Shown piece by piece: positions 58,772 to 64,000 of a DNA stretch of 64,000 nt. The notes under the pieces are model-generated. The model was not told the origin of the DNA and did not search any database. It saw only the letters and a program-made list of their open reading frames with translations. The DNA is from Candidatus Zixiibacteriota bacterium. GTDB taxonomy: Bacteria; Zixibacteria; MSB-5A5; DSPP01. The DNA is taken from the NCBI GenBank assembly GCA_022614805.1, contig JAKEHY010000009.1:5118-69117 (forward strand), read 5' to 3'. How positions within the stretch are numbered: the stretch's first letter is position 1; every line of letters begins with the position of its first letter. Both the position numbers and the translations under genes were made by a program.

Positions 58772-60898
58772 TTAGGGACAGGGGCCGGGACAGCAGGGGG
58801 GCGGGCCGCCGGGCGGTTCGTATCCCAGAAACCACTTCAGCATCCGGCTCATCGCGCAGGTCGCCTGCGCTTCTTTGATTCCGAAAAGCGAGAAACCAAA
58901 ATAGGCCGACTTGAAAATTCCCCGGTCCGAGCGCAGGGCCACCCCTTTGCCGTTCAGGTGGGAGGTGTCGGCAACGCCAACCGGCGAGCGAAACTTATAG
59001 ACTTCTTCGCTTCGGGCTCCTTCACGCACAAAATAGTTAACGGCCGGCACCTGGCGGTAGGGGGTGGTATCCCGGCGCACGGCCACCACCGTGAAACGCC
59101 CAAGCACGCTGTCGTCGACATCCAGGCGCGGGAATCCCTCGTCAACGACGCTAACGCCGGGGTCGGCGCCCGCGAACTCTTCGAGAGTCACGCTGTCATT
59201 GGCCAAGATATTTACATGGGCGTGGGTGAACACTTCCCTCGCCCCGAAGTAAAAGTATCCAACGCCGGTGTTCGGCTGGGTCTGGTTGAAAGGGAGTTCC
59301 ACGGGCGCCGGCACGTTATAGATGGGAAACGCATCGGACAAATCGTCCCGCCCCAGCCCCCAAACACTTCCCCCCGCATCCATATAGGCCTTCAACGAAG
59401 CCTGCATGGTGGTGGGAGCATCGCTGTGAAACATTTTCTCCTTGTGGAAAATGACCAGCTTGTATCGCGCCAGAAGCGACTCCGGAATGGATTCTCTGTA
59501 GTCAAACACCTTCACATCTTGGGCGGAGTCAATCACGCTGCCGTAGCCGGCGTTGCGAATCAGCCGAAGGTAGTAGTTTTGGACCTCTATAAGCCCCGCC
59601 TCTTTTGCACCGGTGGAATCCACGTCCAAAAAAGGAATGGAGCCATCCGGCTGTCCATTTTTCTTGAGGGTCGGCCCGCCGCTGAAGGTCAGTTTGGTGA
59701 TTAAAAGAACATCGCGGTCGAAACGAGGACGCACGACCCCGAAGGTGACCGTGGCCCCAAACGAATCTATCACTTCGGCGTCGTCTTTGGCCCGCACCCG
59801 GAAACGATAGTAGCCAGGTCTGATGCTGGACGTGTCACTATACCGCTTTGACGGGTCGTCACTATACCCCGTGAGTCCGTAAAAGGTAAACGATTTGGCC
59901 GAGGTAAAGACCCGCTTCTTCGGGCTCTGACCCGAGCCGGGGCCCGGCCAGCGCAAGGGATACGCGGTGCTGGCCCATAGCCGATTGCTGTCCAAAAAGT
60001 TGGCTGAATCAGCACTGCGGAAGGGTCCAAAAAGCTCCCAAAAATATTCAAAAGGAGGCTGTTCCTGGTTCGGGTAGTCGAGGGAGTCCGCCCCCTCGTA
60101 ATTGATGGTTATGCCGCAATACCCCACCCGCAAAGTGGGATCCGAGTTATAGGTGGGCCCGTCCAAGGAGTAAAGAATAGGGGGCTCGGAAACTTGAGCA
60201 ATCGGAAAGCGGTTGCAGACGCTGATATTGCGGAAATATGTGCTCGGCGGCCGGTTTTTGCGCCCGAAGTTCCGCCAGGCAATGGGGGAATTTAATCTGA
60301 AAAGGCTGTCACGCTCACTTTGCGTTATCGTTGGTACAAAGATAGAAGCCAGGATTTTGGCCAAGGGGTCAGTGGAAAGTGCGCCGCGGTCGTCCCGCGC
60401 ACGCACAAAGACCTCCGTAGGCCGCGTGGCCGTGTCGGCCGCATTGCGGCTGGCGGAGGGGAGTTCCACCGTATCGGTCTGGCCGTTGCGGTTCACGTTA
60501 TCCACCGACACCCATTCGAACCGCAGCGTATCCCGGCGAAGCGTGTCTTTGAAGACCTCCCAAATGTTGCTGCTGTTGGGCGCATTTCGGCGCAGAAAAT
60601 CCAGAACCACAGAGTCGCGCTGGAATTCGGGAAGTTTGGTAAAGCCGACACCGATTAAGGATTCCGGGATGAGGGCATACTGGAATTCGATGACGTAGCC
60701 GTCCCGGTCGGTGGCATACCAGAAAAGCTGATCGGGCTTGGTGAATACGGTGCTGGCGATGGGAACCGTGGAGAAAAACGCCTTGGGGGGGGCGTTCTCG
60801 TGCGCGACGCCTTTCTTCTTTACCGTGCAACCGCTCCCGATTAAAATCACCCCGATGGCCGCATACACCAACGCGATGCCAAAATGCCTGATTTTCAT
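58772..60898 (-). CDS. large lipoprotein (708 aa) of unknown function with a Cys/Pro-rich C-terminal tail
   Basis: Start trimmed to the ATG at 60898. MKIRHFGIALVYAAIGVILIGSG/C lipobox. C-terminus ...GYEPPGGPPPCCPGPCP. Confidence 0.6.
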   Translation of the reverse strand: MKIRHFGIALVYAAIGVILIGSGCTVKKKGVAHENAPPKAFFSTVPIASTVFTKPDQLFWYATDRDGYVIEFQYALIPESLIGVGFTKLPEFQRDSVVLDFLRRNAPNSSNIWEVFKDTLRRDTLRFEWVSVDNVNRNGQTDTVELPSASRNAADTATRPTEVFVRARDDRGALSTDPLAKILASIFVPTITQSERDSLFRLNSPIAWRNFGRKNRPPSTYFRNISVCNRFPIAQVSEPPILYSLDGPTYNSDPTLRVGYCGITINYEGADSLDYPNQEQPPFEYFWELFGPFRSADSANFLDSNRLWASTAYPLRWPGPGSGQSPKKRVFTSAKSFTFYGLTGYSDDPSKRYSDTSSIRPGYYRFRVRAKDDAEVIDSFGATVTFGVVRPRFDRDVLLITKLTFSGGPTLKKNGQPDGSIPFLDVDSTGAKEAGLIEVQNYYLRLIRNAGYGSVIDSAQDVKVFDYRESIPESLLARYKLVIFHKEKMFHSDAPTTMQASLKAYMDAGGSVWGLGRDDLSDAFPIYNVPAPVELPFNQTQPNTGVGYFYFGAREVFTHAHVNILANDSVTLEEFAGADPGVSVVDEGFPRLDVDDSVLGRFTVVAVRRDTTPYRQVPAVNYFVREGARSEEVYKFRSPVGVADTSHLNGKGVALRSDRGIFKSAYFGFSLFGIKEAQATCAMSRMLKWFLGYEPPGGPPPCCPGPCP

Positions 60899-60932
60899 CC
60901 TTTGCCGCATCTCCTTTGACAAATTTAATCCG

Positions 60933-61922: not shown

Positions 61923-61950
61923 ACGCTCATCAACTCGCTTTCCCGGGCGT

Positions 61951-64000
61951 TCATTTTATAATCACGATTTTGCCCACATAAGTATTTTTAAGGCCCTCCT
62001 CCGTCCAAACCCCCAGTTCGGACTGCACCGTATAGAGGTACAATCCGGCCGTGATGGCCTGGGCATTCCGGGAGAGTAAATTCCAAGACTCGTAACCGGC
62101 GTCGGAAGCGAGGGGGTCTTTATCGTGGCGAATTTCCTCCACCAAATCCCCGTCCAGGGTGTAGATGCGAATGACGCACCGGGCCGGCAGGTTGATGAAA
62201 TTGAGCTTTCTATGCAGTTCCTGCTCAAACCCCACGGTTATCCCCTGCGGGTTTTCGTAATGGCTGTAATCGTTGTCAATCCGGTACGGATTTGGAAAGA
62301 CCGAAATTTTATGCCCTTCCCCCGCCCGGGTCGGCTCATCCGGCAGCGCAAAAACCGCCTGCTTGGCGGAGCTGGGAGTCACCTCGAGCGGGTCCAGCCG
62401 GCCGGAGGCGTTCAAAAACCCGAAGTCAAAGGGGCAGATGGCCACGTACGTCGGCTCCGAGGGGAACAGCCCGGATATTTTGTACTGATACCAATAGGCG
62501 CTGTCGTTGGCGGGGTCGGTAACGGAAGGATACAGCCGCGCCTGGCTCAAGCCCAGATTGAAATCCTGGGGGACAAAGTAGAAAATCGTATCCAGAGGAT
62601 TGCCGTTGTTGCAGGTGTTGCAGAACCGCACACGAATGGCCGTCTTGTCGGTACAAGGGTTACAGTAGGTGAGGTCTGGACAAGGGAGCGAGTTAAAGCT
62701 GATGCCAGTGGCCGCATAGAACTTATTTGGGTCGATCGGCCGTCCAATAATAACAGTATCCCCTATCGGGTCGATGTAATTGCTACAGGTATCCCACCCG
62801 GATACATGCCGGCCACCATTATTATCAAACCACACCCTTTTTACTGCATACAGCCGCTGAATCTCGTCCCAAGTTAAAGGAGGCATCGACGTCGGTTCCC
62901 AAACCCCCGGCGTGTTCGCGGGGGCTCCGGGAGCCACTTTGGCCGTGTTCAGAAACCACACCTTCCAATCCACCTTGTCAAAGGAACCGACGTTGGTGAA
63001 ATTAGTCCCGTCGCCGGACAGCCAGACCCGGTAGCCTTCAAAATCCTTTTGGTCGCTGAACTCGTCCGTGACGTTTTCGGTGTTTTTGCCAAACCAGCGC
63101 ACCAACACTTCTCCCAGTCTGGTTTCAAACTGCATCTGCGGAACCGGCGGGGGCAACGGCCCCTTGAAGTCCGGAATTCCGTCCCCGAATCGCCGCTCGA
63201 CCGAATCCGGTGCGGCCGGGGGAGTAACCCCGCAGAAAACCGTCTCGACTATGGTTTCGTTGTCAAAGACCCGCTGCACCCAGCGGGCGTTGGTGGCGAC
63301 GGGCCCGAAGTCCAGCTTGTTCAGGTAGGTCTCCAGCCGGACCGGGTCGCGAAAATACTCCGGCGCCCGAGCCAGGGCATTATAGTTGTCGGGGTCTTTG
63401 TGAAAACCCTGCCCGGCAATATACCCCAGCGTAACGCGCAGGGTATCGGACGGGTCGTCCGCCAAGGGGCTCAAGCTGAACGGCCCGAAAGAGACGGTAT
63501 AGCGGGTGTCAAAGCCGTTGGCGATGTCAAGGGAACGATCGGTACCCCCCCCGACCAAGGGGGGAAGCCAGCCGTTGCCAAAGCCGTAGTCGACCGTGCT
63601 CTGGTTCAAAGCGCTGTACACTTGGGGAAAATCCAGCTCTTCGTTGGAGAGTTGAGCGTATTTCATTGCATCCCCTTCCGGCTGGCCCAAACCACCCGAA
63701 AGGTTCTTGCGCCCCGGAGCCTTTTGGGGGCCCCAGTCCAAAGTTACGTTGCCGTTCGGCGTCCACCAGTTGAAGGAGGTCTTGATCTGGCTCAAGGGGA
63801 GGGGCGCCCGCACCACCCGGATTCCGGTCACAGCGCTGGCGCTGGTATTCCGATAGGTGCCGACGCTGGGGTCGCCATCCTGGTCGTAGACGTGAGCCAG
63901 GTTTATCGTATCGTTGCAACGGGGGTTAGTCTCGTTGGGGACCCAAGCCTTAAAACCGGAAAGGTCATCCTGGGCGGGGTTCACCGCGTTTTCATGCCCC
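61951..64000 (-). CDS. large secreted protein, 5'-truncated by the window edge; paralog of 53416..56184 with the same variant T9SS-like CTD
   Basis: The ORF is open to the window end (the track starts it at an internal Met at 63984). It aligns to residues ~300-922 of the 53416..56184 protein (IPDFKGPLPPPVP; FPNPYRIDNDYSHYE; IRIYTLDGDLVEEI...GKIVIIK). Confidence 0.65.
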   Translation of the reverse strand, partial: GHENAVNPAQDDLSGFKAWVPNETNPRCNDTINLAHVYDQDGDPSVGTYRNTSASAVTGIRVVRAPLPLSQIKTSFNWWTPNGNVTLDWGPQKAPGRKNLSGGLGQPEGDAMKYAQLSNEELDFPQVYSALNQSTVDYGFGNGWLPPLVGGGTDRSLDIANGFDTRYTVSFGPFSLSPLADDPSDTLRVTLGYIAGQGFHKDPDNYNALARAPEYFRDPVRLETYLNKLDFGPVATNARWVQRVFDNETIVETVFCGVTPPAAPDSVERRFGDGIPDFKGPLPPPVPQMQFETRLGEVLVRWFGKNTENVTDEFSDQKDFEGYRVWLSGDGTNFTNVGSFDKVDWKVWFLNTAKVAPGAPANTPGVWEPTSMPPLTWDEIQRLYAVKRVWFDNNGGRHVSGWDTCSNYIDPIGDTVIIGRPIDPNKFYAATGISFNSLPCPDLTYCNPCTDKTAIRVRFCNTCNNGNPLDTIFYFVPQDFNLGLSQARLYPSVTDPANDSAYWYQYKISGLFPSEPTYVAICPFDFGFLNASGRLDPLEVTPSSAKQAVFALPDEPTRAGEGHKISVFPNPYRIDNDYSHYENPQGITVGFEQELHRKLNFINLPARCVIRIYTLDGDLVEEIRHDKDPLASDAGYESWNLLSRNAQAITAGLYLYTVQSELGVWTEEGLKNTYVGKIVIIK

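Follow-up and report, generated by a model that had tools for sequence, protein, structure and literature searches.

A PorV/PorQ-family barrel gene in a conserved four-gene outer-membrane operon of Zixibacteria, and its possible role as carrier of a variant type IX sorting domain

[quoted passage not shown] The initial annotation regarded these three minus-strand genes as a candidate module dedicated to secretion and surface attachment, in which a cargo is tied to a PorV-like carrier of its own. We found that they form the end of an outer-membrane operon of four genes, which is conserved across Zixibacteria and starts with a gene for a TonB-dependent receptor. We tentatively propose that the barrel is a PorQ-like carrier and anchor dedicated to the CTD of this cargo. 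In the following T stands for the TonB-dependent receptor, C for the cargo, V for the barrel, L for the lipoprotein, G for a glycosyltransferase and C2 for the second cargo copy; L001, L008 etc. are locus numbers, distinct from the lipoprotein L. The genes concerned are:

61951..64000, minus strand: C, cluster-linked surface protein with CTD; its 3' 682 codons are in the window, the rest lies beyond the window edge
60933..61922, minus strand: V, 329-aa outer-membrane barrel of the PorV/PorQ family (FadL-type), PorQ-sized
58772..60898, minus strand: L, probable lipoprotein, 708 aa from the Met that precedes a signal peptide and a GSGC lipobox
56402..58741, plus strand: G, membrane glycosyltransferase of the GT39/PMT_2 family (ArnT-like) whose C-terminal part has TPR repeats; the gene converges on that of L
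53416..56184, minus strand: C2, 922 aa, stand-alone second copy of the cluster-type cargo subfamily, without a barrel gene of its own

The open reading frames (ORFs) of C, V and L lie where they had first been annotated, with intergenic gaps of 28 bp (C/V) and 34 bp (V/L). They are real genes and not chance ORFs because each has many conserved homologues: word-indexed searches found 195 for C, 906 for V and 20 for L, and a profile search with L found 581 cluster representatives at E<=1e-10. The reading frame of C is open through the last base of the window. The full-length protein, 926 aa with a Sec signal peptide, could be read from L001, a 509-kb contig of GCA_973680415.1, which also carries the V gene. 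In L001 a fourth gene, T, which codes for 1132 aa and would fall outside the window, ends 24 bp upstream of C. The proposal of a single operon is thus supported by the operon-like spacing and by synteny, but the operon has four genes rather than three. The strongest sigma-70-like site of the region (11 of 12 matches) precedes T by 87 bp, and inside T-C-V-L nothing resembling a strong terminator was found, both results referring to consensus scans only. Rfam and tRNA scans of the window found nothing.

The conservation of this gene order was studied in two samples. A scan of GTDB species genomes with an alignment of the C family yielded >503 relatives, almost all of them Zixibacteria and some under other labels, and the six-frame ORFs of 80 of these loci were searched with five window proteins. 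The second sample, which was independent, metagenomic and centred on V, contained 81 V genes. The gene upstream of V was C in 44 cases and T in 17, with a contig edge in the remaining 20 (C in 44 of 61 informative loci); downstream of V we found L in 58 cases, C in four, another gene in one and a contig edge in 18 (L in 58 of 63). Over all loci taken together, the gene immediately upstream of the C/V block was T in every informative case (31 of 31), and the notion of a self-contained three-gene module had to be abandoned. The order of cargo, PorV-like barrel and lipoprotein, as suggested for the window, is kept in relatives down to approximately 44% barrel identity. Among the complete architectures 18 were TCVL, 14 TVL, six TCVCVL and one TCCVCVL, and C genes were inserted only directly upstream of a V copy and nowhere else in the cluster. 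G, which has a Pfam PMT_2 domain (58.9 bits) and matches many TPR models, followed L in convergent orientation in 26 of 35 informative loci; it is an often conserved neighbour outside the operon proper. Three loci that are only distantly related (L001:2760-3617, L085:5507-6277 and L087:5512-6306) have an LplA-like lipoate-protein ligase gene upstream of T and in the same orientation, thus the neighbourhood is conserved beyond the operon.

The TVL loci all group together in a neighbour-joining tree of V, as a single clade within the cargo-containing loci, therefore the in-cluster cargo is probably ancestral and was lost once. Since this clade has the receptor, the barrel and the lipoprotein with no cargo between them, C cannot be viewed as the fixed partner of the barrel, as originally assumed; the invariable partners are the receptor and the lipoprotein. 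The contexts of two barrels of the TVL clade comprise LplA, T, V and L in this order, then G in convergent orientation and an S8 peptidase whose CTD is canonical. Many clusters encode, beyond G, a large protein that has a T9SS CTD of canonical type (L085:15600-18503, L087:15907-18825, L008:18025-20865, L010, L011, L013, L015, L044); it is the S8 peptidase in L085 and L087, and in the window C2 holds this position.

Genes of the C family occur in two settings, either in the conserved T-C-V-L cluster, often followed by convergent G, or in tandem arrays, where two to nine paralogs follow one another and T, V and L are absent within 10 kb. Such runs, with as many as nine copies that are approximately 870 aa long, were seen in L078 (CP070674.1), L060, L038, L040, L047, L074 and others. 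The family tree places 108 of 114 array copies in one pure clade, while the remainder of the tree is made up of cluster-linked and C2-type copies. Nearest neighbours tell the same: 42 of 44 cluster copies are closest to another cluster copy and 111 of 114 array copies to another array copy. The array branch is a very large paralogous expansion, and the cluster-linked copies are a subfamily of their own, which bears out the suspected linkage of this cargo to a PorV-like gene across relatives. Array and cluster branches have one CTD consensus in common, of which the insertion described below is a part.

It was claimed that V is a FadL-fold outer-membrane protein with the PorV/PorQ signature, and the profile searches agree with this. 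V scores 208.7 bits against the NCBIfam PorV/PorQ family NF033709 (cutoff 90) over residues 27-329 of 329, and 38.1 bits against Pfam PorV PF19572 (threshold 27); a V homologue in L098 reaches 206 bits with NF033709. FadL/Toluene_X (PF03349) gives 23.1 bits, below its threshold of 29.7, and covers the N-terminal part only. None of the equivalog models is satisfied: the best-scoring one is PorQ (NF033711, 106.9 bits, cutoff 220), and the PorV equivalog (NF033710) gives 90.4 bits with a cutoff of 250, its best stretch being confined to residues 23-236. PorP_SprF was absent among the matches of V at E<=1. The only solved homologue is Flavobacterium johnsoniae PorV (6h3i_F, E 7.7e-6). At 329 aa V is approximately 70 aa shorter than 6h3i_F (402 aa), and between two aligned blocks it lacks approximately 60 residues of a loop present in 6h3i_F, hence we classify it as a PorQ-sized member of the PorV/PorQ family. 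Several V homologues were annotated by JGI as 'long-subunit fatty acid transport protein'. V is not BamG, as the NCBIfam search gave no match to NF053685. A 428-aa FadL-type ORF in L098 (17635-18918, minus strand), whose stop is approximately 5 kb past the end of L, has BamG as its best NCBIfam match (64 bits, below cutoff); this sequence suggests that Zixibacteria also own a Bacteroidota-style BAM accessory barrel, distinct from V. 'PorV2', which at one point seemed to be a published name, was a false match produced by 'PorV' and a reference number.

An unexpected hint at how V is used comes from duplicated copies. Seven species-level genomes (L006, L008, L010, L011, L013, L015 and L044) have the arrangement T-C-V-C-V-L or a longer one, and within each of them the paired V genes are 100% identical in nucleotide sequence over approximately 0.9-1.15 kb, for example:

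L008:8896-9867 and L008:12524-13495: duplicated V genes, identical nucleotides

The borders of identity are sharp and fall approximately at the start and stop of V; in two genomes the identical tract reaches 190 nt into the CTD end of the cargo gene. The flanking C copies of the same seven genomes have only 54-68% protein identity. An assembly artefact is unlikely: the assemblies are seven independent ones, one of them with long-read-style contig naming, and the V-to-C and V-to-L junctions both require that V be traversed twice. To judge from the sequences, the barrel gene seems to have undergone concerted evolution (gene conversion). If so, every inserted cargo gene would require a separate supply of the unaltered barrel, as is more easily understood for a stoichiometric partner than for a catalytic shuttle, and partners shared by the two copies would constrain the barrel.

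The cargo itself belongs to a family without a Pfam domain, and beyond its CTD we found no Pfam or NCBIfam family for C, nor any for L; searches of PDB sequences did not find a solved homologue for the C family, T or L. The second cargo copy was correctly recognised in the initial annotation: C2 has 922 aa, and its alignment with C covers 686 positions at 44% identity (E 5e-179). It is 100% identical to the NCBI protein L0196_02165, which is made to start at an internal Met (896 aa, P0001), a start that cuts off the predicted signal peptide; the 922-aa ORF, which begins at an upstream TTG, retains it. A C2-type layout is found also in L005 and L089. C2 was modelled with AlphaFold2 from a 101-sequence alignment. 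The model, a confident one (predicted local distance difference test score, pLDDT, 85.3; predicted template modelling score 0.82), is almost entirely beta, and predicts for the family a galactose-mutarotase-like beta-supersandwich, FN3-like domains and a divergent T9SS-type CTD, with no (alpha/alpha)6 catalytic domain. Foldseek also gave a weak match of the family to PorU (6za2, E 4e-5). The residues that are invariant in the family are mostly Asp and Gly in DxDGD-type loops, which suggests structural calcium sites rather than catalysis. C was considered also as a glycoside hydrolase or phosphorylase, and this was rejected: only the non-catalytic N-terminal supersandwich of such enzymes matches, and the (alpha/alpha)6 barrel is missing.

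That the C-terminus of C follows the architecture of T9SS sorting domains was proposed from its motifs, and this part of the proposal holds. The last approximately 100 aa form a beta-sandwich with PNPY, IRIYTLDGDLV, GLYLY and GKIVIIK, and the type A motif set (PNP(F/Y), I.IY...G..V, G.Y.Y and a K-hydrophobic-K end) is complete in both window copies. In the C2 model the CTD comprises six strands at 847-919, in a block with pLDDT mostly 88-97. What sets the family apart is a conserved insertion of approximately 20 aa (Y...GYE) after the PNPY strand, by which the first strand is displaced. The KIVII(K/Q) end, which had been called atypical, is not, because it is like the MMVVK end of a canonical CTD encoded in the same window.

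Profile models tell a less straightforward story. C matches neither TIGR04183 nor PF18962, and C2 scores 15.9 bits on TIGR04183, whose cutoff is 23; both window copies match the PorU and PorZ models below threshold and only in the CTD part, within the last 70-100 model residues (profile positions 1000-1094 and 692-757). Among 26 family members CTD matches were to PorZ in 17, to PorU in eight and, below threshold, to TIGR04183 in seven, and NCBI labels three members as 'T9SS type A sorting domain-containing'. Membership of C in PorU or PorZ is contradicted by the absence of a C25-like peptidase and of beta-propellers, and the type B CTD (TIGR04131/PF11751) was absent among the matches of C at E<=1. 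We also built a profile from 11 canonical CTDs, seeded from the gene at 20638..21696 and containing no C-family member, and searched it against a database of 4257 ORFs. At the inclusion threshold it matched the extreme C-terminus of 22 C-family ORFs, and 35 of 166 C-family C-termini had E<0.01, always at profile positions of approximately 23-83. We conclude that the CTD of the C family is a divergent relative of type A CTDs, the homology being shown at the level of the family.

L was described as a 708-aa lipoprotein with a Cys/Pro-rich tail. The gene, its length and its ending (PPGGPPPCCPGPCP) are right, but the tail is lineage-specific: it is found only in the closest relatives, and most homologues end with WFIGPP. 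The G-C lipobox is nearly invariant. The predicted structure has two Ig/FN3-like sandwiches and a C-terminal domain that resembles class I glutamine amidotransferases (ThuA/GIFT-like, GATase1). In the homologue alignment this domain has no conserved Cys or His, which speaks against a catalytic class I glutamine amidotransferase; for the same reason the ideas that L is a sortase like PorU or a GATase1-fold cysteine peptidase were dropped.

T is a TonB-dependent receptor of generic type, with the Pfam domains PF07715 (Plug), PF00593 (TonB_dep_Rec barrel), PF13620 and PF13715 (CarboxypepD_reg), and a TonB-box-like DTVEVIAG could be read directly between the N-terminal domain and the plug. Its NCBIfam matches are generic TonB-receptor models below threshold, and it matches weakly the Oar-type barrel PF25183. 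SusC/RagA (TIGR04056) is ruled out, as there was no match to the model, and the lipoprotein beside T, being Ig-like and GATase1-like, is not a SusD-like alpha-helical one. At residues ~440-660 of T (L001:3769-7167) the barrel contains a long Asp/Asn/Gly-rich insertion with repeats of the DxNGNG type (DVNGNGVYDPP, DTNDNGRFD, DMDKDGRYNP and DANGNGVYDYGNDG), which look like thrombospondin-type-3 or dockerin-like calcium-binding loops.

Evidence that the organism uses type IX sorting comes from canonical CTD cargo, which is encoded in the window, and in related loci, where S8 and M6 peptidases have a Por_Secre_tail. The window genes are:

20638..21696, plus strand: canonical type A CTD protein, 352 aa, with a PPC-like domain; TIGR04183 51 bits, PF18962 45 bits
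21953..24328, plus strand: FG-GAP/VCBS-repeat protein, 791 aa, the next gene after the canonical CTD gene

No ORF of >1800 aa was found in the related loci examined, and our search for literature on T9SS or other secretion systems in Zixibacteria found nothing relevant, nor did a wider one over the FCB phyla yield information.

It is useful to compare T-C-V-L with outer-membrane systems described previously, in which FadL-family barrels of this superphylum are established as adaptors. The closest is PorQ-PorZ of Porphyromonas gingivalis, followed by the pairs of PorP/SprF barrels and type B CTD proteins. PorQ, a barrel of approximately 330 aa, holds PorZ, whose CTD is uncleaved and neither classic type A nor type B, and PorQ was proposed to replace PorV in the collection of PorZ from the translocon (PMC10947112, PMC5562754). 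Similarly, V scores best on the PorQ equivalog and the CTD of C on that of PorZ. Differences are that V stays below the PorQ cutoff, that C consists of a supersandwich and FN3-like domains where PorZ has two beta-propellers, and that the C-V pair belongs to another phylum and to an operon with a TonB-dependent receptor and a lipoprotein. PorP/SprF barrels are encoded adjacent to the type B CTD proteins that they anchor, and are needed for the secretion of that cargo; in such pairs, e.g. SprB-SprF or PG1035-PorP-PorE, a PorE-like lipoprotein is sometimes adjacent, and a genome may have several pairs (PMC9143113). The cargo gene adjoins its own FadL-family barrel gene in both cases, but V is of the PorV/PorQ family, the CTD of C is type-A-like, the unit includes a TonB-dependent receptor, and L has none of the TPR, beta-propeller or OmpA domains of PorE. 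PorV, which docks on SprA and carries type A CTDs, binding them via its extracellular loops (PMC10994853), is of the same family as V and has the same N-terminal signature; V is shorter, fails the PorV equivalog, and is tied to a single subfamily of cargo and to a receptor and a lipoprotein; presumably it does not serve all cargo.

Three further systems resemble the cluster in the company that its barrels keep. BamG packs on BamA and anchors the surface lipoprotein BamH, which has a carbohydrate-binding fold, acting as an adaptor and not as a transporter (PMC12611786). It sets a structural precedent for a link of L and/or C to T by way of V, with the differences that V has no BamG match and that the partner is a TonB-dependent receptor instead of BamA. 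The SusCD utilisomes of Bacteroidota consist of a TonB-dependent barrel and lipoproteins (PMC7618045). T has likewise an N-terminal CarboxypepD_reg-type domain, a co-encoded lipoprotein and a surface protein of carbohydrate-binding type. Unlike in SusCD, T does not match SusC/RagA, L is Ig-like and GATase1-like where SusD is alpha-helical and TPR-like, the surface protein is a T9SS-type CTD protein and not a lipoprotein, there is an extra FadL-type barrel, and the locus looks single-copy and phylum-wide, whereas polysaccharide utilisation loci are many and variable. Finally, the TonB-dependent receptor Oar of Myxococcus xanthus is needed for PopC to be secreted (PMC6434023); it shares with T the CarboxypepD_reg domain and the barrel, and in both cases a protein that crosses the outer membrane is linked to such a receptor. 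There is no sequence-level orthology between Oar and T, PopC has no CTD, and no FadL-type partner is known.

We found no literature that describes the T-C-V-L combination. The arrangement of a cargo tied to its own PorV-like carrier had been judged unusual. In principle it is known (PMC9143113, PMC10947112), but this combination appears to be undescribed: the barrel is of the PorV/PorQ and not of the PorP/SprF family, and its operon also encodes a TonB-dependent receptor and a lipoprotein of GATase1-like type. The conservation across a phylum outside Bacteroidota, the dedicated CTD subtype and the concerted evolution of the barrel are further parts of this combination.

Starting from the family assignments, folds, gene order, conservation and identical barrel copies, the reading that we prefer, if only tentatively and at somewhat less than even chances, is that V is a PorQ-like dedicated carrier and anchor for the C-type CTD within a TonB-dependent complex for capture and uptake at the cell surface. 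C would cross the outer membrane via the general type IX translocon of the cell, and V, not the general PorV, would collect it by its variant CTD and hold it at the surface, one barrel per cargo, in a way that would mirror PorQ-PorZ and the PorP/SprF-type B CTD proteins. V, and probably L too, would sit against the barrel of T, as BamG on BamA anchors BamH, and C would thereby be displayed beside a TonB-powered import channel. The whole complex may be a utilisome-like device for capture and uptake of a bulky ligand, glycan-like or otherwise. Array copies of C, which have the same CTD variant, may use the same barrel. A bolder formulation, in which T9SS parts have been reused so that a PorQ-like barrel docks a CTD protein, possibly also array paralogs, and a lipoprotein onto T, and thus builds a utilisome without SusD, seems to us possible but doubtful.

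Several observations weigh against our proposal. We infer the export of C by the T9SS, the binding of its CTD to V, the contact with T, the nature of the ligand and the direction in which it would be transported. The TIGR04183 cutoff is reached by neither copy in the window, and the canonical-CTD profile did not match them directly; they join it only at the next iteration. One clade keeps T-V-L without a cluster-linked C, and a 4.46-Mb genome of this clade has only array-type copies among the best C matches, thus V must have a function also where no C is encoded beside it. The argument for glycan binding is weak because the supersandwich fold occurs in many non-binding contexts, e.g. the P1 domain of YidC and aldose epimerases, and the L model is of moderate confidence (pLDDT 73). 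With apparently one copy and with housekeeping genes such as LplA on its flanks, the module differs from typical polysaccharide utilisation loci and might serve envelope biogenesis.

The last point leads to the strongest competing explanation, namely that V is the housekeeping PorV, a general shuttle for type A cargo, and the cluster the attachment machinery of the phylum, with C as an accessory comparable to PorU or PorZ. C might then deliver a surface glycan, and L, T and the GT39 enzyme would serve cargo attachment or the handling of surface glycans. The genes porU and porV are adjacent in Bacteroidota, and the C-V order resembles this adjacency. The seemingly single-copy presence of the cluster across the sampled Zixibacteria loci beside housekeeping genes, the persistence of V where the cluster has no C, the GT39 gene adjoining in most loci, the best matches of the CTD to PorZ and PorU and the weak structural match to PorU are all compatible with a housekeeping role. 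No second PorV-type gene was found in approximately 2 Mb of Zixibacteria DNA, the sole other match being the BamG-like ORF, but this absence means little because the DNA examined was biased to this locus. We consider a housekeeping PorV unlikely, because V falls far below the PorV equivalog cutoff and is much shorter than F. johnsoniae PorV, because C resembles PorU and PorZ in its CTD only, having neither peptidase nor beta-propeller, and because a family expanded to as many as nine tandem copies is typical of cargo and not of machinery. Moreover, the cluster contains T, and we know of no T9SS role for any TonB-dependent receptor.

Alternatively, T-C-V-L could be a plain TonB uptake locus, in which V is a FadL-type channel or an accessory barrel for a hydrophobic or amphipathic substrate, L binds the substrate, and C is cargo of a general PorV that is merely co-transcribed and makes no specific contact to V through its CTD. 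In favour of this T has a plug, a TonB-box-like motif and a barrel, T-V-L occurs without C in one clade, V has the weak Toluene_X match, and there are the JGI labels of V homologues. We hold this to be decidedly unlikely: V is far above the PorV/PorQ family cutoff and below that of FadL/Toluene_X, the cluster-linked C copies are a distinct conserved subfamily, and C inserts only directly upstream of V, which is re-copied after the inserted C. It is very improbable that T is a dedicated TonB-powered exporter of C with V as carrier, on a secretion route independent of SprA, as the domain set and weak Oar-type match of T, the precedent of secretion dependent on a TonB-dependent receptor (PMC6434023) and the strict T-C coupling (24-bp gap, T always upstream) are countered by a plugged 22-strand barrel too narrow for a folded multidomain protein of 100 kDa, by the homology of the CTD to T9SS CTDs in an organism with canonical T9SS cargo, and by the retention of T in the TVL clade without a co-encoded C.

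Some other features of these sequences should be mentioned. At ~24465..46267 the window contains two gene sets similar to those for type II secretion or type IV pili, with secretins at 25755..27074 and 37038..38321, GspE-like and PilT-like ATPases, GspF, a PilM-PilN fusion and pseudopilins; a sigma-54 response regulator (32700..34124) is among these genes, and large ORFs without a family lie around them (27100..28857, 29888..31204 and 18683..20833). The minus-strand gene at 48025..51003, which is separated from C2 by approximately 2.4 kb and two genes, codes for a sigma-54 activator of 992 aa that has a GAF domain and, at its N-terminus, a TPR region of unusual length. Many contigs with the cluster or the cargo family (L005-L084; P0014, P0016, P0023, P0119) carry the public labels Ignavibacteria, Verrucomicrobiae, Limisphaerales or Gemmatimonas aurantiaca, which are probably binning or taxonomy errors.

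Dedicated carriers of the FadL family, such as PorQ for PorZ or SprF for SprB, are so far known from a few Bacteroidota only. The hundreds of loci from an uncultured sister phylum are a large natural data set for comparison, in which one barrel of PorV/PorQ type is locked genetically to one CTD subtype, a receptor and a lipoprotein, and three large Zixibacteria families of 'hypothetical proteins' have gained a context. If the predicted contacts are real, parts of the type IX sorting system would have been reused to build nutrient-uptake or other envelope machines, and the cluster would be a tractable system for studying the specificity between CTDs and carriers. If the bolder formulation is true, T-C-V-L would represent a new class of outer-membrane complexes, assembled via recognition of a CTD by a barrel, and V would be the first PorV-family barrel partnered with a TonB-dependent receptor instead of SprA.

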